DNA of 64,000 bases, from the sequence record PZ386970.1; one strand, 5' to 3'. Position 1 is the stretch's first letter, and each line of letters starts with the position of its first letter. The position numbers and the translations under genes are program-made. This document shows positions 4,755 through 60,186 of this stretch, piece after piece. The notes beneath the pieces were generated by a model. That model saw only the letters and a program-made list of their open reading frames with translations, was not told the origin of the DNA and did not search any database. The stretch comes from a phage.

Positions 4755-4979
4755 TCAGTGCACAGTATTTACTTTAACTCGAACAACAAATCGCTCGGTC
4801 GGTTCACCTACAGGAACAAACTCTACATGATATTCGCCTTTGTATCGAGTATTCAGGTCATTACGAATTCCTGCGAGTTTGTTGATTAATGTAGGACTCA
4901 TATTAAGTCCCACTAGTTTACGAAGCATTTTGTATGCTTCATCTTCGATTTCATGATGTTTATCGTACATAGTTTTCAT
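4755..4979 (-). CDS. hypothetical protein
   Basis: 74-aa ORF from track. Confidence 0.45.
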   Translation of the reverse strand: MKTMYDKHHEIEDEAYKMLRKLVGLNMSPTLINKLAGIRNDLNTRYKGEYHVEFVPVGEPTERFVVRVKVNTVH

Positions 4980-5150
4980 TTAACCATTCAATTGCCTGGT
5001 CGACGTTATCAAATATACCACCGTCCAAACGTTCTTCATGCTCATAGTCCAGCACATCAATACCGAACTGTCCATTTACTAAAGGCCAGGCTACAAACAA
5101 ATATTCTTTATGCTGTTCGATGGCCTCAATCACTTCATATAATCGTTTCA

Positions 5151-5151
<1 letters not shown>
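4960..5151 (-). CDS. hypothetical protein
   Basis: 63-aa ORF from track, immediately upstream of pseT in the same operon. Confidence 0.4.
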
Positions 5152-6237
<1,086 letters not shown>

Positions 6238-6594: not shown

Positions 6595-6819
6595 CTATTT
6601 TACTAAAGATTCAATATACTCGTGAAGAGCTTTAGTCGCTACTGCCCACTTATTCTGATATTCATTTTTCAGATTAGCACGAGACTGAACTAACAATCGG
6701 TCATTAGTCGGAGGCAAAGATTCTAATCGTTGAATCTGGCGCCCATAAATCATAGCCGCCATTTCAGATTCATAGATAAGCCCTTTAATGTATTCATGCT
6801 GTTCTTTAGTCATTGGCAT
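6595..6819 (-). CDS. hypothetical protein
   Basis: 74-aa ORF from track. Confidence 0.45.
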   Translation of the reverse strand: MPMTKEQHEYIKGLIYESEMAAMIYGRQIQRLESLPPTNDRLLVQSRANLKNEYQNKWAVATKALHEYIESLVK

Positions 6820-7100
6820 TTTTCCTCTTTTAAACCACTACGATAATAACATATCATAGTCTTCTGGTCATGTACATATCTTTTTACGTCGTTTAACCAG
6901 ATACGAAATTCTTGAGAGTCTTCAAATGGCATTCCAACCCATGGATTACCATCAATAACCTTTACTTGCCATTTCTGGTTATATTCAACAATAGATTCTG
7001 GCCACGGCGGATGTAAAGTTTCTTTAGGGCTTAAGGGCACATCCTGGGCACACCCAGCCAAAATACCAATAGATAATACAACTGCGGTTAATTTAATCAT
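6810..7100 (-). CDS. outer-membrane spanin (o-spanin) lipoprotein, T4 pseT.2-like
   Basis: 96-aa ORF with signal peptide and lipobox (ILAGC); 4-nt overlap with upstream i-spanin; position between pseT and alc as for T4 spanins. Confidence 0.6.
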   Translation of the reverse strand: MIKLTAVVLSIGILAGCAQDVPLSPKETLHPPWPESIVEYNQKWQVKVIDGNPWVGMPFEDSQEFRIWLNDVKRYVHDQKTMICYYRSGLKEEKCQ

Positions 7101-7453
7101 TCTGAGAGCTTCCTGAGGTCTTCTGCAAAGGAATCGAAGGACTTGTTGATTTGTTTTTCGACCAATCCTGGTTTACTTGCCACCACGTTCTTCTTCTTCG
7201 AATCCTTACGGAGCTTTTCATTTTCGGCCTTAAGTTGGTCAACTAAAACACGATTCTTATATGTCATTTCTTCTATAGACTGATATTGAATCTTGAAGTC
7301 GTCTAATACTTTAGCATTGTTTTTAGCAGTCTCTTTAACAGAAGCCAATTCAGTATTCAGCGAATCGACTTTATGGTTCAGAAATGCTATTGTTACAGTA
7401 GCAACAACCGCAAAAGCTGCCACTACAATATATGATGCATTTACTTTAAGCAT
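7097..7453 (-). CDS. inner-membrane spanin (i-spanin), T4 pseT.3-like
   Basis: 118-aa ORF: N-terminal transmembrane segment (YIVVAAFAVVATVTIAF) followed by predicted coiled-coil periplasmic domain. Confidence 0.6.
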   Translation of the reverse strand: MLKVNASYIVVAAFAVVATVTIAFLNHKVDSLNTELASVKETAKNNAKVLDDFKIQYQSIEEMTYKNRVLVDQLKAENEKLRKDSKKKNVVASKPGLVEKQINKSFDSFAEDLRKLSE

Positions 7454-8003: not shown

Positions 8004-9137
<1,134 letters not shown>

Positions 9138-9184
9138 TCAGTTAGTTTTTTTTAAATTGTACCACAATCCTTGTGGTATGTAAA

Positions 9185-9595
9185 CTACTTTTTCTTATGT
9201 TGGATATTCCAAGGCGGGTTGAACTTTTTGATAAAAAGTGGTTCTTCAAGGTCCATTGTTGCGATGGTCATTGAACCAAGTTCATTGGTGACTGAAAGGT
9301 CAAAACATTGGCGGGCCCAGAATTCAACCTTTTTGCCTTGCATTAAGGCATCCAAAATCATAAGTGATTTTCTTGAATCTGAAGTCTGGTCTTTTCGATT
9401 TATGGCTGTTCGATAATAGTTAATGCGTTTCTTTAAATTCTTGGTTTTACCAATATACACAAGTTCGTCATCTATAGCAATAGCGTATATGACATTTTTC
9501 TTATTAGGGACATCAACTGTTTTAATTGTTGCATCTTCTAATAGCTCCAATTCTGTATATTTAATAAAGGAATATTCGGCGGCAATATCTTTCAT
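9185..9595 (-). CDS. denA: endonuclease II (GIY-YIG family)
   Basis: 136-aa ORF (same as T4 DenA) with GIY-YIG-like block VIYAIAIDDELVYIGKT; position between rnlA and nrdB. Confidence 0.8.
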   Translation of the reverse strand: MKDIAAEYSFIKYTELELLEDATIKTVDVPNKKNVIYAIAIDDELVYIGKTKNLKKRINYYRTAINRKDQTSDSRKSLMILDALMQGKKVEFWARQCFDLSVTNELGSMTIATMDLEEPLFIKKFNPPWNIQHKKK

Positions 9596-28491: not shown

Positions 28492-29151
28492 ATGGCAACA
28501 CCAAAAGTGTCATTTTCGCCTAGTGATATTCTATTTGGGTTGCTAGATCGTATTTTCAAAGATAACGCTACTGGAAAGGTTTTAATGTCCCGAGTAGCGG
28601 TAATTATTCTTTTGTTCCTAATGGCACTAATATGGTACAAAGGAAGTATTTTGCTGGATTATTATGTAAGATCTAAGTATGATACTTATACTGAAATAAT
28701 CCAAAAAGAACGAGCTTTACGTTTTGAATCTGCGGCTCTAGAACAACTGCAAATAGTTCATATCTCATCTGGTGCAGATTTTAGTGCTGTGTATTCTTTC
28801 AGACCTAAAAACTTAAATTATTTCGTCGACCTTATAGCTTATGAAGGCAAACTGCCTAGCACAATTTCTGAAAAGTCCCTTGGAGGATTCCCAGTAGATA
28901 AAACGGCCAATGAATATATAATTCATTTAAGTGGCCGTCATTTCTCGTCTAAATCAGAATTTGCATTTTTGCCTACAAAATCTAAGACTGCCGAACTTTC
29001 TTATATGTATAGTTGTCCATACTTTAATTTGGATAACATCTATGCTGGAACTGTGACGATGTATTGGTATAAGGGGAATAATATACTTGAGGAAGATCGC
29101 TTAGCGGCTATATGCAACCAAGCGGTCCGAATACTAGGAAGGGCTAAATAA
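28492..29151 (+). CDS. t: holin
   Basis: 219-aa ORF with single N-proximal transmembrane segment and large periplasmic domain; sequence closely matches T4 T. Confidence 0.9.
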   Translation: MATPKVSFSPSDILFGLLDRIFKDNATGKVLMSRVAVIILLFLMALIWYKGSILLDYYVRSKYDTYTEIIQKERALRFESAALEQLQIVHISSGADFSAVYSFRPKNLNYFVDLIAYEGKLPSTISEKSLGGFPVDKTANEYIIHLSGRHFSSKSEFAFLPTKSKTAELSYMYSCPYFNLDNIYAGTVTMYWYKGNNILEEDRLAAICNQAVRILGRAK

Positions 29152-53259: not shown

Positions 53260-53781
53260 TTAGTAACCATTATCCTGACGTTCAAAGTTGTGTTGGTTTT
53301 TCAGATAATACAGTTTGAAGATTTCTTCAGCAGAAAGTCCTAGACCTTGGAACATATTTAGAACGAAATGCAGAATATCAATCATTTCGAATTTAATTTC
53401 AAGCTGGTCTTCAGGAGACAGTTCATCGATACGACGATTACGATATTCAGCATGCTGTGCCTTCCACGGCTTCCATACACTGCTGGCGGCTTTTTCACCA
53501 TTGCTCATACCACCAAGTGAAGTCAGCAGTTCACGGAATTCATCATCAATATAATCTTTCTGATTACGCAGCCAATCAACAACATCACCAGCAGTAGCCA
53601 ATTCATCAGGATGTTTGTTATGTTCAGGCTTGTCATTTGCCAGACGAACCTGTAAAGATTTCTGCATATCAAGCATTACCTGCAGTGGGTCTTTATCTTC
53701 GTGAATCAGAGCATTAAAATAAGCTTCTTCTGCTTTATCAACACCAGAAATAAGTTGTGAACATTCGTTAAAGTGTGCCAT
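53260..53781 (-). CDS. 56: dCTP pyrophosphatase (dCTPase/dUTPase, MazG-like)
   Basis: track ORF 53260..53796 trimmed to MAHFNEC... start with AAAGGA RBS; sequence closely matches T4 gp56. Confidence 0.85.
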   Translation of the reverse strand: MAHFNECSQLISGVDKAEEAYFNALIHEDKDPLQVMLDMQKSLQVRLANDKPEHNKHPDELATAGDVVDWLRNQKDYIDDEFRELLTSLGGMSNGEKAASSVWKPWKAQHAEYRNRRIDELSPEDQLEIKFEMIDILHFVLNMFQGLGLSAEEIFKLYYLKNQHNFERQDNGY

Positions 53782-53870
53782 TATTTTTCCTTTCAATTCA
53801 GTATAAGAGAGTTAATTCTAACATTAATTTTATAAAGCGTAATAAATAATAAGGTAACTAAGGAGATATT

Positions 53871-54068
53871 ATGTTTAAACTTCCATCGTTAATCAACGCT
53901 ATTAAAGGCAATAAAAAGAAAACTGCTATCGCTGCAATAGTTGTAGGTGGCATTATTTCATGGAACTTCGGGATTGCACCATTGTTAGTTGCCCATGGTA
54001 TTATAGTTCCTTCTGTTCCATTGGATACTGTTGTTGACCTAGCTTTTGCTGTTATAGGGCTAGTCTAA
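53871..54068 (+). CDS. small hydrophobic protein (65 aa), plus strand
   Basis: track ORF with strong RBS (TAAGGAGAtattATG); two predicted hydrophobic segments; lies in the 56-61 intergenic region antisense to flanking genes. Confidence 0.4.
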   Translation: MFKLPSLINAIKGNKKKTAIAAIVVGGIISWNFGIAPLLVAHGIIVPSVPLDTVVDLAFAVIGLV

Positions 54069-55087
54069 ATTTTAGAATACCGAGATAATCTCATTTTAGC
54101 ATGCAACCCACTTGAAATATTCTGTTTCATATATTCTAAAATTTCTTGTGGTGTTGCATTTTCTTTCATTACCATATCATTCACATCCTTTGAACTCCAT
54201 GGAGCTCTATCCCAGAACATAACACGTTCACCTGCATCTACTAATCGCTTCATACGAGCTATAGTATCCGGATGCCTAGGTTCATTATCCATTACCCATA
54301 CCCGACGTTCTTTAAATGGTACCACATCTAAATCTATTGAGCCGCCTGTAATAGCGATTGCATTGGGTATGAATAAACTATCAATAGGGCCTTCCATTAC
54401 CCAGACGTCTCCTTCCTTAACACGTTCAACACCATAAATTTTTGTTGCGGTCTCAAACGCTTTAATAGTGATATATTTTTGAGGAGCATCTTTACGAAGT
54501 GCACGTCCTTGGAATGACTCAGCCTTCCCATCTTTATTAAAAATAGGAATAACTAAACGTGGTTCTGGAATCTCTTTCTTATACGTACCAGGTTGAATCT
54601 TGTTGACCAATTTGGGCCATTCTAATGTGAACCATAATCTGTTCCATGATTCTTTAGGAATACACCGAGACTTAACATATTTCACAATAGGATGCTCTTC
54701 AGGCAACTTGTCCAGACGAGAACAAGACGGCAAAGAATTTATAGTCTTTTTCTCTGGCTCCGGCTTAGCTTCAGGAACCTTTTCAATCTTTGGTTCCATT
54801 CTAGCTTTTTCTTTACGAACTTCCATTAGATACTCGCGATAAAGCTCTTCATCGTACTCTTTTAAGTATCCGGAAATTGTATTGTGGTATTGACAGTTAT
54901 AGCAATGTACATTACCAGGAGTACCACCGTAATACCAACCGCGGGCTTTCATTGCATCTGTCTGAGAGTCGCCACAAACTGGACAACGAAATGTTAATTT
55001 AAATGTGCTTGAATTATTGATTTGTCTAAAACGAGGGAGGTGAGAAAACGCACGATAAGCAAATTCATTATCTATCCATTCAGCCAT
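54065..55087 (-). CDS. 61: gp61 DNA primase
   Basis: 340-aa ORF; zinc ribbon FRCPVCGDSQTD...ARGWYYG and TOPRIM region; closely matches T4 gp61. Confidence 0.9.
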   Translation of the reverse strand: MAEWIDNEFAYRAFSHLPRFRQINNSSTFKLTFRCPVCGDSQTDAMKARGWYYGGTPGNVHCYNCQYHNTISGYLKEYDEELYREYLMEVRKEKARMEPKIEKVPEAKPEPEKKTINSLPSCSRLDKLPEEHPIVKYVKSRCIPKESWNRLWFTLEWPKLVNKIQPGTYKKEIPEPRLVIPIFNKDGKAESFQGRALRKDAPQKYITIKAFETATKIYGVERVKEGDVWVMEGPIDSLFIPNAIAITGGSIDLDVVPFKERRVWVMDNEPRHPDTIARMKRLVDAGERVMFWDRAPWSSKDVNDMVMKENATPQEILEYMKQNISSGLHAKMRLSRYSKI

Positions 55088-55126
55088 AGTATTCTCCAGA
55101 GGCCTTAAATTAATAAGGCCATCTTA

Positions 55127-55621
55127 TCACAACTTATTAATATTTACTTTAATTCGCTTTCTTTTCTTGGAAGGAATTTGTTCTGGACCTTTATTTACAA
55201 TTGCGCCTGTAGTAGTTCCTGATGCAATAGCTTGAGGACTGCCGCCTGAATCACCAGCAACCATATCCTCAAATAAAGGGAGTTCTTTAAATATTTCTTT
55301 CTGCTGTTCTTCTGTAATGTTATAGCGGGATGCTACAGCACTCCAGGCAGACATCATTGAGGCCATTCCATTAAGACCTGGAACAGTACTCATCATTCGC
55401 TTCATTGAACGAACTGAAGCATGAAAAGGTGTATAAGCCACTTTCTCTTCGGGAGTAGAAGGACGTTTAAGAACACTTCCACGTTCGTCGATGATTTTGG
55501 CTTCGTATGCTTTCCATTCGGTAAAAGGTTTTTGCATTAGTCGAATAAACTTATATGCGTAAACAGAATCTATTGCAGTGTTAATAATACCCATAGGTAC
55601 CTCCTGAGTATATTTAATCAA
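55127..55621 (-). CDS. hypothetical protein (61.1-position)
   Basis: 164-aa ORF from track (true start may be internal ATG). Confidence 0.5.
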   Translation of the reverse strand: MIKYTQEVPMGIINTAIDSVYAYKFIRLMQKPFTEWKAYEAKIIDERGSVLKRPSTPEEKVAYTPFHASVRSMKRMMSTVPGLNGMASMMSAWSAVASRYNITEEQQKEIFKELPLFEDMVAGDSGGSPQAIASGTTTGAIVNKGPEQIPSKKRKRIKVNINKL

Positions 55622-55811
55622 TCACAAAGATCGCTTTATCACCGTTCGCATCTGTGACTTCATATGTAGTGCCTTCATACTGTGGAATATTCCAAATTAC
55701 ACCGTCATTAGCTTTTACGCTAATATGGCATTGGTGTTTTGAAACAACTTCATAATCTTCAAAACTTGTAAAAACACTAATTTTAGAACCAGTGCAAATT
55801 GCAGTAGTCAT
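55614..55811 (-). CDS. hypothetical protein
   Basis: 65-aa ORF from track. Confidence 0.45.
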   Translation of the reverse strand: MTTAICTGSKISVFTSFEDYEVVSKHQCHISVKANDGVIWNIPQYEGTTYEVTDANGDKAIFVID

Positions 55812-55812
55812 T

Positions 55813-56472
55813 TTAACCTCGATTCATAAATGCATTAAATATTTGGTCATCAACAGAAATTTCTAATTCGACTTCAATTGTTTCAGCCTTTTCTTCAGGT
55901 GGTAATTCGTATCCACACACTACAATTTTTTCATCGATATCAAAATATACAGAAGCAATACGATTAATGTTACTTTCAGTTAAGTCTAAATCAACATCAA
56001 CATCTTTTTGACCTACACTTAAAGGATAACTAATACGGGTTATTTTATTATCTTTAACAAAGAGTCCGCCAACATACTCTGTACTACGTTTGAAGTTTAC
56101 ACGTTTCCGAATTGAAAGATATGATACATCTTTACCATGAGCTCGGCTCATAGGACATAATGAATAGCTAGAATAAGAGATGTCAAATCCTACGCCTTCA
56201 ACATGTGCTAGAGTATCATGAGTAAACCAATTATAGTCGTATGCCAAATCCATTAAATTATAATATGTGAAAGGCACTGGATTAACATCGTATGTTGTAC
56301 CTTTAAAATCTGCCCAGGCGACGATTTCGTTATCTTTAACAATTACAAAAATTACACCAATATGATATCCGTTATTATTTTCATTCGGCGTTATATTATA
56401 ACATTGTGCATTAGGAAATTTACCATATTTAAATGGCGCATTTTTGTGCATATAATAAATCATATTATTCAC
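55813..56472 (-). CDS. hypothetical protein (61.2-position)
   Basis: 219-aa ORF from track. Confidence 0.5.
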   Translation of the reverse strand: MNNMIYYMHKNAPFKYGKFPNAQCYNITPNENNNGYHIGVIFVIVKDNEIVAWADFKGTTYDVNPVPFTYYNLMDLAYDYNWFTHDTLAHVEGVGFDISYSSYSLCPMSRAHGKDVSYLSIRKRVNFKRSTEYVGGLFVKDNKITRISYPLSVGQKDVDVDLDLTESNINRIASVYFDIDEKIVVCGYELPPEEKAETIEVELEISVDDQIFNAFMNRG

Positions 56473-56758
56473 CTGTGATTTCGGTTACGATATCTTTGTT
56501 ATCGAAATTAGGGTCACAATACAAAACATAGTTGTACTGCATGATACCGCCAGACTTAAGTTGTTCAACAACTTTATTAACCATATTAGGACGGTCTCGT
56601 TTAGTGATGTTCATGATATCAGAGAAGATTTGTTGTTCAACATCTTCTTGATTTGCAGTCATTGACCACTCACAGAGGTCTTTATCATAACCTGCCGTAA
56701 CTGGAGCTGGTGCACATGATACTGCAAGTAAGATTGCTGCCAATGATAACTTTTTCAT
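56465..56758 (-). CDS. sp: Spackle periplasmic protein (superinfection exclusion / lysozyme inhibitor)
   Basis: 97-aa ORF with signal peptide; mature region AGYDKDLCEWSMTA...GG.MQYNYVLYCD.NF.NK.I matches T4 Sp. Confidence 0.8.
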   Translation of the reverse strand: MKKLSLAAILLAVSCAPAPVTAGYDKDLCEWSMTANQEDVEQQIFSDIMNITKRDRPNMVNKVVEQLKSGGIMQYNYVLYCDPNFDNKDIVTEITGE

Positions 56759-56821
56759 TTTAACTCCTTAGTTGATTTGATAGGACTACTATACTATAGT
56801 CCATCTATAATGTAAACAAAT

Positions 56822-57070
56822 TTATTCTTTTTCGCGAATAATAATTACTTGTTGAGGCTGCTGAGCCGATTTCTTTTCGGCAACGATAGACCAAATTAAA
56901 GTTCCAATCCAACCAACCATCGTCCAGTTAAAGAGTAAAGATACAAAGAAGATTGCTGTTGTGCTTTTTGTGCCACGAATAAGTGCGATTACCCAAGGCA
57001 ACATGTAAATGATGATTGAACCAATACCTGCGATTAAAACTGCTACTGAACTAGCTACGAATAATTCCAT
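56822..57070 (-). CDS. small integral membrane protein
   Basis: 82-aa ORF with two hydrophobic segments. Confidence 0.5.
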   Translation of the reverse strand: MELFVASSVAVLIAGIGSIIIYMLPWVIALIRGTKSTTAIFFVSLLFNWTMVGWIGTLIWSIVAEKKSAQQPQQVIIIREKE

Positions 57071-57131
57071 GTTAATTTCCTCTTGATTTGTTATGTTTAT
57101 AATATCTTGTTTTAACTTTGGTGTAAACCAA

Positions 57132-57500
57132 TTAATTAAATTTGTTTAAACGTTCAATACACTGGACGTAGTTATTCGCGATTTGTTTCTGGGTAGGCTC
57201 TTTACCAGTTGTTTCAACATAGCGAATGAATGCGATTTCAGTAGCCTGTAGGCAATGTTCTTTAACGCGTTGTTCTTTTGACAATGCGACAGTATCAGAA
57301 TCACGATAACGTTGAGCATGAGCATCAGCTTGAATCATTCGATTACCTACAGTAACCGGGTCTTCCACTTCAACTTTAGGTTGGTCGTACTGTTTAACAT
57401 TCGGATTGTAAATCAGTTGGCCAACGTTATTAGGGATAAAGCCATGAGCACCACATCCAGTTAATCCAAATACCATTGCTAAAGCGATTAATTTTTTCAT
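57132..57500 (-). CDS. putative lipoprotein
   Basis: 122-aa ORF with signal peptide and lipobox LTGC. Confidence 0.55.
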   Translation of the reverse strand: MKKLIALAMVFGLTGCGAHGFIPNNVGQLIYNPNVKQYDQPKVEVEDPVTVGNRMIQADAHAQRYRDSDTVALSKEQRVKEHCLQATEIAFIRYVETTGKEPTQKQIANNYVQCIERLNKFN

Positions 57501-57560
57501 TTCAATTTCCTCTGTAGTTGATAGAAAGATAGTAACACAGTACGTGGTGCTTGTAAACAG

Positions 57561-57773
57561 CTATTTTAAACTTTTGCGAAATTTGCGTTTTTCTTGACGA
57601 ATCTGTCGTTTAGTCGGACGTACAGCAAATTTAACGAAGTCCACTTTGCCGTGTGGAAACTTTTCAGATGCTTCACAGTCCATCATTAGTTCCCATCCTT
57701 CCAGAATAAGAGCTTTCCATGGAGTGGTTGACACAAATTCGTACGGGGATGGTTTAAATACTGTTGAATACAT
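57561..57773 (-). CDS. hypothetical basic protein
   Basis: track ORF 57561..57818 trimmed so as not to overlap dmd; start uncertain. Confidence 0.35.
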   Translation of the reverse strand: MYSTVFKPSPYEFVSTTPWKALILEGWELMMDCEASEKFPHGKVDFVKFAVRPTKRQIRQEKRKFRKSLK

Positions 57774-57774
57774 A

Positions 57775-57966
57775 TTAACCTCTGAAATCAGCTTCGAAAA
57801 CTTTCTCGTCATTAACAAATGCTTTAACTAATGCTTTGTTCACTTCAGCAAGTTGTACCGTAACCCACTCGATTTCTTCACGATCACCTGATAACATGAT
57901 ATCTTTAGTGAACATCTCACCGCTTTTAAACCAGCCAATAAAAGTAACTTTAGTTAATTTGCTCAT
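57775..57966 (-). CDS. dmd: Dmd antitoxin (discriminator of mRNA degradation)
   Basis: track ORF trimmed to internal ATG; ~63 aa; blocks F.GWFK...MFTK.I and AEVNKALVKAF..D.KV.E.D.RG match T4 Dmd as recalled. Confidence 0.7.
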   Translation of the reverse strand: MSKLTKVTFIGWFKSGEMFTKDIMLSGDREEIEWVTVQLAEVNKALVKAFVNDEKVFEADFRG

Positions 57967-58280
57967 ATTTCCTCGCAAAAGGCCCATTCAGCGTGATAAA
58001 CTGTAGCACCTTTAGTATCATTCATTTGAACTACGTCTACCGGAGAAATTACTCGATAGAGACGTGGTTCACCTCCATAAGAGCGTGCTGCTCGTCCTGC
58101 ATAAATCTTTGCTAAACCGATATCTTCAGTAAAGAATACACGATCCAAGTTTTTCTTACGTCCAGTTTCAGACAGAACTCCTGTTTCTTCAGGAGGACAA
58201 AGCATGTTTTCGATGTTAGCTGAACTACTTGAACCGTGATAAAAAATCTTAAATTCTGCTTTACAATCGATGGTTTTCAT
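57963..58280 (-). CDS. hypothetical protein with weak Arr-like ADP-ribosyltransferase features
   Basis: 105-aa ORF; FYHGSSS near N-terminus and later Y/E-containing blocks loosely resemble rifampin ADP-ribosyltransferase (Arr) family; own early promoter. Confidence 0.45.
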   Translation of the reverse strand: MKTIDCKAEFKIFYHGSSSSANIENMLCPPEETGVLSETGRKKNLDRVFFTEDIGLAKIYAGRAARSYGGEPRLYRVISPVDVVQMNDTKGATVYHAEWAFCEEI

Positions 58281-58306
58281 TTTGTTCTCCAGTAGTTGAT
58301 AGGTCT

Positions 58307-58336
58307 ATAGTAACATGATTTAGGAGTGTTGTAAAC
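58307..58336 (-). promoter_or_regulatory. early-type promoter adjacent to gene 41 terminator hairpin
   Basis: minus strand GTTTAC ~18 nt TACTAT; hairpin AGGAGAC-UUCG-GUCUCCU immediately upstream at ~58343-58360. Confidence 0.5.
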
Positions 58337-58365
58337 CCCGAAAGGAGACCGAAGTCTCCTTTCTA

Positions 58366-59808
58366 TTAAAATTTTAACTCATTGGCTAAGCTATCTAGGT
58401 CAGCACGTGTTGCTTTGGCTTTACCTACGCGTTCCGTACGATTCACCTCTGCCTGACGCATCTGAGCACCTGCGTTTTCATTTACTGTGTTAGGTGTGTT
58501 CATTCCTTCTTGCTCAATCTCAACCCATTTCTGATTGCCTTTACGTACACCCATCAGGAATTTATTCCACTTATTCTTATCACCATATCGTGATTTGATT
58601 TGTTTGATAAGTTGTTGTTCAGCTTGTGCAAGTTCTTCGGTTTCAATTACGGCCAACATGAAATCTGCCGTTGCTGGTAAACCTGCTGATTCTGCGATAT
58701 CACTCATGTTCATGTCTGAAGCATCCCATGCTGCACGTCCTACTTGAGCTGCAGTCCATAGAACTGTTTCAGATTCTACTGCTAATGCACGAAGTTCTTC
58801 TGCGATAGCTTTAACTAATGTGTAGCTATTTTCAGTGTAAACTCTGATACGACAAGACCCACAAATACCTAAGTAATCGACTATAATTACAGACGGCACA
58901 AAGTTCTTCTTGAGTTTTAACTCATTAAGCAATGCACGGAATGTATTAGCATTAGCTCCACCAGTAGGATACTGTTTGACTACTAAACGTCCTAATGTGG
59001 ATTTTGAACGCCATTTTTCCATTTTGGCTTTATATTCAGCATAAGATACGTTACCATCATCGATATCATCGAGTGATACGTCAAGCATGTTTGCATCTAT
59101 ACGCTTAGCACAAACTTCTTCAGCCATTTCCATGGAAATATAAAGAACATTATGGCCTGTTTGAAGATAATCTGCAGCAAGTGAACAAAGGCCTAAAGAT
59201 TTACCAACGTTAACACCGGCCATTAAAACATTCAGTGTACCGGTTTCAGCACCACCTTTAGTGATTTTATTCAAAATGTTTAATTTGAACGGGACCTTAC
59301 GTGCTTTGTTCAGATAAGAAAGCCAGCGTGCTTCGTAGTCTTCCATCCAGTCATGTCCAACATAACTATCAAACGAAATTGAAAGTGCTTGACGCATAAT
59401 ATCAGGAATAGCTCCTACGTCAGGCATTTTCTTGTTACGTTGTTCTGGAGGTAATTCAGCATTAGACTGAATCTCAATGATTTTGGATGTAGCATTATAC
59501 ATCGCTTTTTGCTGGACATATTTCTCAGTTTCTTTAACCAACCATTCGTGGTCTTCAGGAGTATCAGCCAATTTTTCAATTAGGTCTGAAGTTCCTTTAT
59601 ATTCGGCTTCAGTTAAAGAACTGTTATCTAAAGCCACCTTTAACGCATTGATAGACGGCATTGCATTATATTCGTTAACGTGGCTCTTTATAATTTTAAA
59701 GACATTTTTTGCCGGTCCACGCTCAAAATACTCAGAATCCATATAAGGCCAGACCTTAGAAAAATAAGCCTGGTCGTATACTAGATGAGACAAAATAATT
59801 TCTACCAC
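58366..59808 (-). CDS. 41: gp41 replicative DNA helicase (DnaB-like)
   Basis: 480-aa ORF; Walker A GVNVGKS, DnaB-family architecture; size as T4 gp41. Confidence 0.9.
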   Translation of the reverse strand: MVEIILSHLVYDQAYFSKVWPYMDSEYFERGPAKNVFKIIKSHVNEYNAMPSINALKVALDNSSLTEAEYKGTSDLIEKLADTPEDHEWLVKETEKYVQQKAMYNATSKIIEIQSNAELPPEQRNKKMPDVGAIPDIMRQALSISFDSYVGHDWMEDYEARWLSYLNKARKVPFKLNILNKITKGGAETGTLNVLMAGVNVGKSLGLCSLAADYLQTGHNVLYISMEMAEEVCAKRIDANMLDVSLDDIDDGNVSYAEYKAKMEKWRSKSTLGRLVVKQYPTGGANANTFRALLNELKLKKNFVPSVIIVDYLGICGSCRIRVYTENSYTLVKAIAEELRALAVESETVLWTAAQVGRAAWDASDMNMSDIAESAGLPATADFMLAVIETEELAQAEQQLIKQIKSRYGDKNKWNKFLMGVRKGNQKWVEIEQEGMNTPNTVNENAGAQMRQAEVNRTERVGKAKATRADLDSLANELKF

Positions 59809-59817
59809 GATAACTCC

Positions 59818-60186
59818 TTAAAAGAATTTAAATTTTTTCTTGGTCCGTTCATTAAAAGCTTGTTGTACTTGCATTGTAACACATTTTTCAACATGTGGTG
59901 CAAGTTCTGCTTTTCTGTCTTGGTCAAGAACTGCAAAGTCCATTACGATTTTACCATCAACCCAGTCTAGTTTTGTAATATAGACTATATGATGAGAACC
60001 ATCTTCAAGTGTAATCAGAATCTCTTGAATGACATTTTCCATTGCTGAACGGATAATTTTAAGAGATTCATTAAACACTCGTTCTTTGCGAATGTCTTCC
60101 CCTTCCGAAGAAGGGGATTCATCAACGATTTCTAGATTTAAATCATCAAGATTATTCATCGAAATCTTCCATTTCGTCAAGGTCAT
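59818..60186 (-). CDS. 40: gp40-position protein (head vertex assembly chaperone in T4)
   Basis: 122-aa ORF between uvsX and 41 as in T4 (uvsX-40-41 operon); assignment by synteny and size. Confidence 0.5.
   Translation of the reverse strand: MTLTKWKISMNNLDDLNLEIVDESPSSEGEDIRKERVFNESLKIIRSAMENVIQEILITLEDGSHHIVYITKLDWVDGKIVMDFAVLDQDRKAELAPHVEKCVTMQVQQAFNERTKKKFKFF

Follow-up and report, generated by a model that had tools for sequence, protein, structure and literature searches.

In a 64,000-nucleotide stretch of phage DNA (sequence record PZ386970.1, called the window here), the minus strand of the interval 55127-57966 carries eight genes between those of the gp61 primase and the gp41 helicase. 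T-even phages have an accessory region of early genes between genes 61 and 41; we read this locus as its RB69-type (Mosigvirus) form, composed of exclusion and anti-toxin cassettes, and we put the probability of this reading at about 0.85. The locus is an already described, well-annotated accessory region of T-even phages, and the idea of an island at this place is already in print. What is added here is the adjacency of imm and an Imm.1-family gene in 23 of 23 T4-type loci, the density of early promoters, and the recognition of the RB69ORF040c homologue (ORF040c below), encoded just beyond the interval, as a predicted ADP-ribosyltransferase (ART). The gene identities are established by homology. 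The activities, shown in T4 for Sp, Imm and Dmd and in both RB69 and T4 for TifA and AdfA, would carry over to the phage of the window by analogy. The genes concerned, with those that flank them, are as follows.

57775-57966, minus strand: dmd (61.5), 63 amino acids, putative inhibitor of RnlA and LsoA (Pfam PF17587, E=8.8e-22)
57561-57773, minus strand: tifA (61.4), 70 amino acids, putative inhibitor of ToxN (Pfam DUF7279, E=8.2e-20)
57132-57500, minus strand: imm.1, 122 amino acids, predicted lipoprotein with the lipobox LTG↓C and Gly at +2 (Pfam DUF5481, PF17578, E=4e-9; phrog_1754, E=5e-29)
56822-57070, minus strand: imm, 82 amino acids, putative inner-membrane superinfection-immunity protein (PF14373, E=2e-15; phrog_1039 'immunity to superinfection', E=1e-30)
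56465-56758, minus strand: sp (spackle), 97 amino acids (Pfam T4_Spackle PF25676, E=1.1e-42, residues 1-96 of 96)
55813-56451, minus strand, start at 56451: adfA (61.2), 212 amino acids in RB69 numbering, anti-DarT factor A (PF23813, E=2.2e-118, profile 1-211 of 211)
57963-58280, minus strand: RB69ORF040c homologue, 105 amino acids, predicted minimal H-Y-E ADP-ribosyltransferase, first gene of the ART-dmd-tifA operon, just beyond the interval
55614-55811, minus strand: RB69ORF033c homologue, 65 amino acids (98% identity to RB69ORF033c; phrog_3249, E=1e-33)
55127-55594, minus strand: 61.1-like gene, 155 amino acids (phrog_2086, E=5e-73, residues 10-162)
54065-55087, minus strand: gp61 primase (99.7% identity to RB69 gp61)
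58366-59808, minus strand: gp41 helicase (99.2% identity to RB69 gp41)

We assigned the genes by comparing their proteins with those of RB69 and T4 and by scanning them against Pfam and PHROG; named orthologues exist for six of the eight interval genes. An NCBIfam scan of nine locus proteins gave zero matches, as did an Rfam scan of positions 53500-60000. Megablast places the phage in Mosigvirus, within the T4 family; 155 phage records match it over at least 80% of the region with an identity of about 97%. RB69 is among them and is itself about 97% identical there. The gene order is the same in the RB69 annotation and in one recent relative.

A sequence-only reading of this interval had placed spackle, a 122-amino-acid lipobox protein, an 82-amino-acid membrane protein and Dmd between primase 61 and helicase 41, and all of these were recovered in that position. 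The several unknown proteins of which it also spoke are present, but two of them are known: 61.2 is AdfA and 61.4 is TifA. It had further described the lipoprotein and the membrane protein as uncharacterised candidates. This does not hold for the membrane protein, which is Imm; it holds for the lipoprotein to the extent that Imm.1 has a name and an annotation, and no functional study of it was found in the literature.

In the proposed picture, small and mostly independent cassettes would be expressed immediately after infection, and their products would fall into two functional groups. In the first, Spackle would be exported to the periplasm and block the tail lysozyme, gp5, of phages that arrive later, Imm in the inner membrane would stop superinfecting DNA from crossing, and Imm.1, a lipoprotein presumably tethered to the outer membrane, would hold a disulfide-bonded helical hairpin in the periplasm as an accessory of Imm. 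In the second, three cytoplasmic proteins would bind toxins of host toxin-antitoxin systems and neutralise them, AdfA the DNA ADP-ribosyltransferases of the DarT type, TifA the toxin ToxN, and Dmd both RnlA and LsoA; a minimal ADP-ribosyltransferase encoded upstream would be co-transcribed with dmd and tifA.

The two established exclusion proteins are well supported by their orthologues. Sp of the window shares 66% identity with T4 Sp over 97 amino acids, begins with the predicted signal peptide MKKLSLAAILLAVSCAPAPVTA↓GYDK, and keeps Cys29 and Cys81, the disulfide pair of the T4 protein. T4 Sp is exported, carries the Cys29-Cys81 disulfide and acts on incoming tails by inhibiting their gp5 lysozyme; it is soluble, with cleavage after residue 22 (PMC7677548). 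A PROSITE-style lipobox rule flags LAVS↓C in the window protein (56714-56758), and we rejected a lipoprotein reading of Spackle, since T4 Sp is a soluble periplasmic protein of 75 amino acids when mature; simple lipobox rules thus over-call. T4 Sp presumably has a similar lipobox-like motif.

Imm reaches 56.9 bits against PF14373 (Imm_superinfect; cut-off 27.9) and shares 100% identity with RB69 Imm and 64%, over 82/83 amino acids, with T4 Imm. A Kyte-Doolittle scan, which is a heuristic and not a trained predictor, gives it two hydrophobic segments, at about 1-34 and 40-59. In T4, Imm resides in the inner membrane and keeps DNA from being transferred. No test of Imm or Sp exclusion in an RB69-type phage was found in the literature. 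The genes imm.1, imm and sp make three envelope genes in a row; with 11 envelope proteins among the 97 open reading frames (ORFs) of the window, we estimate the chance of three consecutive ones at about 10%, and the row alone is weak evidence of non-random clustering.

The anti-toxin genes are close to their RB69 counterparts. Dmd shares 97% identity with its RB69 orthologue and 57% with that of T4. Its start is the ATG at 57966, where the sequence-only reading had also set the end of the interval, and this codon overlaps the stop of ORF040c as ATGA. TifA is 96% identical to the 70-amino-acid gp61.4 of RB69 and 57% identical to T4 gp61.4, its central basic cluster contains RPTKRQIRQEKRKFRK, and its ATG at 57773 sits 1 nucleotide past the dmd stop. 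Longer versions of both proteins, a 70-amino-acid Dmd from the ORF finder and an 85-amino-acid TifA from a TTG codon, were rejected, since in each case the ATG start fits RB69 and T4 and abuts the upstream stop. T4 Dmd neutralises RnlA and LsoA (cited in PMC9391042), and RB69 TifA, which was tested directly, inhibits ToxN and is the more potent homologue (PMC9391042).

AdfA is 97% identical to RB69 gp61.2, from which it differs by seven substitutions, and 65% identical to T4 gp61.2. At position 164 it has Arg, as in wild-type RB69, where T4 has His, so that the window lacks the His164 allele that binds and neutralises E. coli DarT1. The R164 allele is reported to show neither binding nor neutralisation of the DarT1 tested; R164H is the change by which RB69 escapes DarTG1 (PMC11825919). 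From this we can predict that the window AdfA fails on the tested DarT1 as that of wild-type RB69 does; it should be noted that the sensitivity of the phage to DarTG1 would also hinge on its gene 30.3 (adfN). Membership of AdfA in its family with an allele reported to be inactive on the tested DarT1 counts against reading the locus as a set of working exclusion and anti-toxin cassettes, and so does the relation of the two groups to each other: they have no known mechanistic tie, and their co-location may perhaps reflect a permissive insertion site alone.

Further evidence for an early-gene region comes from the intergenic gaps, four of which carry a recurrent motif.

56788-56817, minus strand: early-promoter motif upstream of sp, GTTTACA-N17-TATAGT
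57099-57128, minus strand: early-promoter motif upstream of imm, GTTTACA-N17-TATTAT
57529-57558, minus strand: early-promoter motif upstream of imm.1, GTTTACA-N17-TACTAT
58307-58362, minus strand: hairpin and early-promoter motif (58307-58336), a PeSL-like terminator-promoter cassette

A common layout of about 60 nucleotides is repeated in the gap ahead of each of the genes ORF040c, imm.1, imm and sp: GTTTACA, 17 nucleotides, TA(C/T)(T/A)(A/G)T, CTATCAA, a Shine-Dalgarno sequence and ATG. In the window we counted 13 occurrences of GTTTACA-N17-TAYWRT, always on the minus strand; shuffled sequences lead us to expect 0.07 occurrences. Of the 13, 4 lie within 1.55 kb (56788-58336); the density of early promoters at the locus is clearly non-random. 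The motif agrees with the published early-promoter and PeSL consensus of T-even phages, TTTACW-N17-TAYWAT, which was described together with a mechanism of PeSL shuffling (PMC4122927). A full PeSL, that is, a stem-loop with a promoter, is found only at 58307-58362, where a hairpin directly after the gene 41 stop (58341-58362; 10 bp, UUCG loop, -16.4 kcal/mol, z = -3.8) precedes the promoter; the three other sites have the promoter alone. The ATGA overlap between ORF040c and dmd and the 1-nucleotide spacing between dmd and tifA indicate that these three genes make up a single operon; a separate promoter would serve each of imm.1, imm, and sp together with its downstream genes. From the promoter motifs we infer that the genes of the locus are expressed early.

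Whether these genes were brought together by selection is a separate question. The corresponding region of T4 was proposed to be an island because dmd, tifA and adfA sit together there: it 'may be an anti-TA island' (TA, toxin-antitoxin), whose other genes are attractive candidates (Srikant, Guegler and Laub, eLife 2022, PMC9391042). The sequence-only reading had likewise suggested a superinfection-exclusion or anti-defence island. The core of that suggestion stands, with AdfA, TifA and Dmd as well as Sp and Imm present and the T4 proposal in print; the co-location itself may partly be due to cassette shuffling. On this alternative, to which we give roughly even odds, the genes lie together as a by-product of shuffling between PeSL repeats in a hyperplastic 61-41 gap, by historical accident and not as a selected island.

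The comparison of gene content across T4-like phages, which the sequence-only reading had proposed as a check, speaks partly for each side. The 61-41 gap holds 5 genes in T4, 10 in RB69, 9 in the window, 9 in RZ, 4 in Merlin and 5 in JD18, and its content is unlike in every genus examined. Only sp is found at the locus in all genera examined; dmd occurs there in the window, RB69, T4 and RZ, adfA in the window, RB69 and T4, the ART gene (ORF040c) in the window, RB69 and RZ, and imm/imm.1 in the RB69 group only. Such variation by genus is what shuffling predicts, and the same may be said of the imm.1-imm pair, which has gene 43 as its neighbour in 21 of the 23 T4-type loci and is placed at 61-41 in Mosigvirus alone.

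A more direct trace is seen next to gene 41. In RB69, RB69ORF041c is flanked by two GTTTAC promoters (comparison sequence 4781-5297). In the window this gene is missing, and positions 58281-58365 hold a single hybrid promoter, which corresponds to the first RB69 copy in its upstream part and to the second in its downstream part. The loss of ORF041c with a hybrid promoter left behind is the footprint expected of promoter- or PeSL-mediated loss or gain of a cassette. Among the matches listed, the TH58 record is the only one whose match across the ORF041c region is unbroken and about as long as in the window; by implication, phage TH58 also lacks ORF041c. The four intergenic cassettes can be aligned to each other, and both the PeSL mechanism and the T-even consensus are published. 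Shuffling does not readily explain the translationally coupled dmd-tifA and ART-dmd operons, which are conserved across genera, nor the retention of sp at the locus in all of them. The two accounts are compatible, since shuffling can assemble an island, and the 'island' may owe as much to a permissive zone of insertion, rich in promoters, as to selection for a unit.

The gene at the head of the dmd-tifA anti-toxin operon encodes a very conserved predicted ART of 105 amino acids. ORF040c gave no sequence matches in Pfam, NCBIfam or PDB; its structural model has a confident ART fold (pLDDT 84), and H15, Y60 and E103 are invariant. Homologues fall into more than 149 clusters at 60-90% identity, from large phages of many hosts. 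Pairing of a 'p0068-family' ART with Dmd in enterobacterial phages has been predicted and suggested to be a phage toxin-antitoxin pair (Iyer et al. 2022, PMC9503650); no experiment or biochemical data on the 'p0068' ART were found in the literature. Applied to the window, this proposal would make ORF040c and Dmd a phage-borne toxin-antitoxin pair, in which the first job of Dmd in RB69-type phages would be to restrain the phage's own ART. The ATGA overlap of the two genes, the recurrence of the ART-dmd pairing in Gaprivervirus RZ, the well-supported fold and H-Y-E triad and the published proposal all favour it. We nevertheless consider it unlikely, as Dmd is present in T4 without the ART, has a proven host target in RnlA/LsoA, and stands next to an ART that is very widely conserved in large phages of many hosts; an anti-defence role like that of AcrIF11, or a role in host takeover, fits the fold equally well.

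The function of Imm.1 is the sole lead from this locus that is worth an experiment, the protein being a predicted lipoprotein whose gene is invariably linked to imm in T4-type phages. Imm.1 of the window reaches 37.3 bits against PF17578 (cut-off 27) and shares 99% identity with its RB69 counterpart and 32% with that of T4. Its N-terminus, MKKLIALAMVFGLTG↓C, fits the lipobox pattern by rule, with a positively charged start, a hydrophobic core and L-[AST]-[GA]-C inside the first 15-25 residues. Across 27 family members L13, G15 and C16 are conserved in at least 90%, and a C-terminal Cys is invariant; T4 Imm.1 likewise starts with a lipobox, LAG↓C. The residue at +2 is never Asp, being Gly in the window and Val, Gln or Ala in relatives. 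In E. coli, lipoproteins without Asp at +2 are sorted to the outer membrane, and Imm.1 is therefore predicted to undergo Lol-dependent sorting to that membrane. In the AlphaFold (AF2) model, residues 1-45 are a disordered tether, and behind them comes a helical hairpin (48-98/104-121; pLDDT 80-92), in which a disulfide between Cys83 and Cys113, one on each helix, is plausible. The product of T4 imm.1 (NC_000866, comparison sequence 9137-9514) is named 'iduronate sulfatase' in RefSeq, a name to which the sequence gives no support and which has spread to other records, e.g. that of Yersinia phage fPS-2.

Relatives of Imm.1 are few. An exhaustive HMMER search returned 7 representatives among 1.8 billion proteins, and a profile search returned 26 clusters of about 110-170 amino acids each, apparently from T4-like phages; neither search gave bacterial relatives that could lend a function. 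What the family does offer is its genomic position. The Imm profile retrieved 80 loci from IMG/VR, 23 with T4-type marker genes and 57 others. An Imm.1-family gene lies near imm, within a few hundred bases and on the same strand, in 23/23 of the T4-type loci, which represent about 7 lineages and are not independent of one another, and in 0/57 of the others. The pair is found between dmd/tifA and sp only in two Mosigvirus loci; the gap between the two genes is 61 nucleotides in the window. Same-strand adjacency of imm.1 and imm is also seen in T4, RB69, Merlin, JD18, fDHCT2 and RZ, and a phrog_1754 lipoprotein gene stands directly upstream of imm in Merlin and JD18 and directly downstream of it in Dhakavirus and Gaprivervirus. 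The linkage thus takes three different arrangements across T4-type loci, and adjacency kept through all of them, a flip of the order and a translocation included, suggests that imm and imm.1 behave as a two-gene module. In the Mosigvirus lineage this module was relocated as a unit to beside sp.

On the basis of this conserved linkage, Imm.1 is a possible, if doubtful, candidate for a periplasm-facing accessory of Imm tethered to the outer membrane. A somewhat bolder and slightly less probable extension, again purely genomic in its basis, is that T-even exclusion is a three-part system spanning the envelope, with Imm.1 in the outer membrane, Spackle in the periplasm and Imm in the inner membrane, and with Imm.1 as the partner of Imm. 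If so, the Mosigviruses would have gathered all three parts in one early block, and the textbook view of two exclusion proteins would be extended. Three points speak against a partnership of this kind. A Foldseek comparison of the model with the PDB gave a best E of 2.4 and no informative neighbour; only the helical hairpin is confidently modelled, and the fold is thus uninformative. Between RB69 and T4, Imm.1 has diverged far faster than Imm (32% against 64% identity). Finally, Lu and Henning reportedly found in 1989 that imm alone on a plasmid confers immunity, so Imm.1 is probably not strictly required.

A very unlikely alternative to the role as an Imm accessory is that Imm.1 blocks a receptor or porin from the outer membrane in the manner of T5 Llp or Cor, acting on adsorption, on irreversible binding or against inactivation of progeny by debris, and independently of Imm: a small lipoprotein under an early promoter, lacking the inner-membrane retention signal at +2 and encoded among exclusion genes, would suit it, and T5 Llp is said to be a precedent for a phage exclusion lipoprotein, but Imm.1 has zero sequence or fold similarity to anything, adsorption of superinfecting phage continues on T4-infected cells, with degradation of the incoming DNA in the periplasm, and so strict a linkage to imm suggests that the role of Imm.1 is tied to Imm and not to a receptor.

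Two further genes complete the interval. The 61.1-like protein is best started at the ATG at 55594; a 164-amino-acid version from a TTG start is unlikely. Its C-terminus is 67% identical to the 54-amino-acid gp61.1 of T4. The ORF (55127-55621) is intact in the window and in CAU_ECP01, and the RB69 record splits it into RB69p031 and RB69p032 (comparison sequence 1628-2094), probably owing to a frameshift or a sequencing error in the reference. This protein is 84% identical to gp35 of Citrobacter phage Merlin, the adjacent primase being only 61% identical. The homologue of RB69ORF033c occurs in Gaprivervirus RZ too.

Elsewhere in the window we observed several small membrane or envelope proteins. 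RB69ORF029w (53871-54068, plus strand), of 65 amino acids with two hydrophobic segments, is convergent with gene 61, and the annotations of RZ, Merlin and JD18 have an ORF of equal size at the corresponding place and in that orientation. By hydrophobicity scan only, a 96-amino-acid lipobox protein (ILAG↓C) overlapping a 118-amino-acid N-terminally anchored protein at 6810-7453 resembles an o-spanin/i-spanin pair, and a 219-amino-acid protein with a single transmembrane segment at 28492-29151 (plus strand) is like the T4 holin in size.

Among known systems, the closest is RB69 itself (NC_004928, RB69p030-p042, genes 61 to 41), which agrees with the window in gene order and orientation and in protein identities of 96-100%; the differences are ORF041c (375 bp, 124 amino acids), which RB69 has between ORF040c and gene 41 and the window does not, and the 61.1-like gene, which only the RB69 record splits in two. 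The 61-41 region of T4 carries 61.1, adfA (61.2), sp, tifA (61.4) and dmd in the order of the window and under early promoters, but it is without the ART gene, ORF033c and ORF041c, and its imm.1-imm pair lies 6 kb off, between genes 43 and 42. Two of the shared proteins differ in length: T4 gp61.1 (54 amino acids) corresponds to the C-terminal part only of the 61.1-like protein of the window, and T4 TifA has a C-terminal extension relative to that of the window.

At the level of mechanism, ORF040c may be compared with the minimal H-Y-E ARTs Tpt1/KptA, Arr and AcrIF11, to which it has no detectable sequence similarity and from which it stands apart by its length of only 105 amino acids. T5 Llp and Cor-type proteins share with Imm.1 that they are small early phage lipoproteins tied to exclusion; they have no sequence or structural similarity to it, Imm.1 being a predicted tethered helical hairpin. 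A functional parallel is the two-protein superinfection exclusion of T4 by Imm and Sp (Lu and Henning; Kanamaru/Shi et al. for Sp). Both proteins have orthologues in the window, at 64% and 66% identity, respectively, with the key features kept: Imm has its two transmembrane segments, and Sp has both its signal peptide and the Cys29-Cys81 pair. Compared with the T4 system, that of the window has sp and imm as neighbours, with the gene of the Imm.1 lipoprotein beside them.

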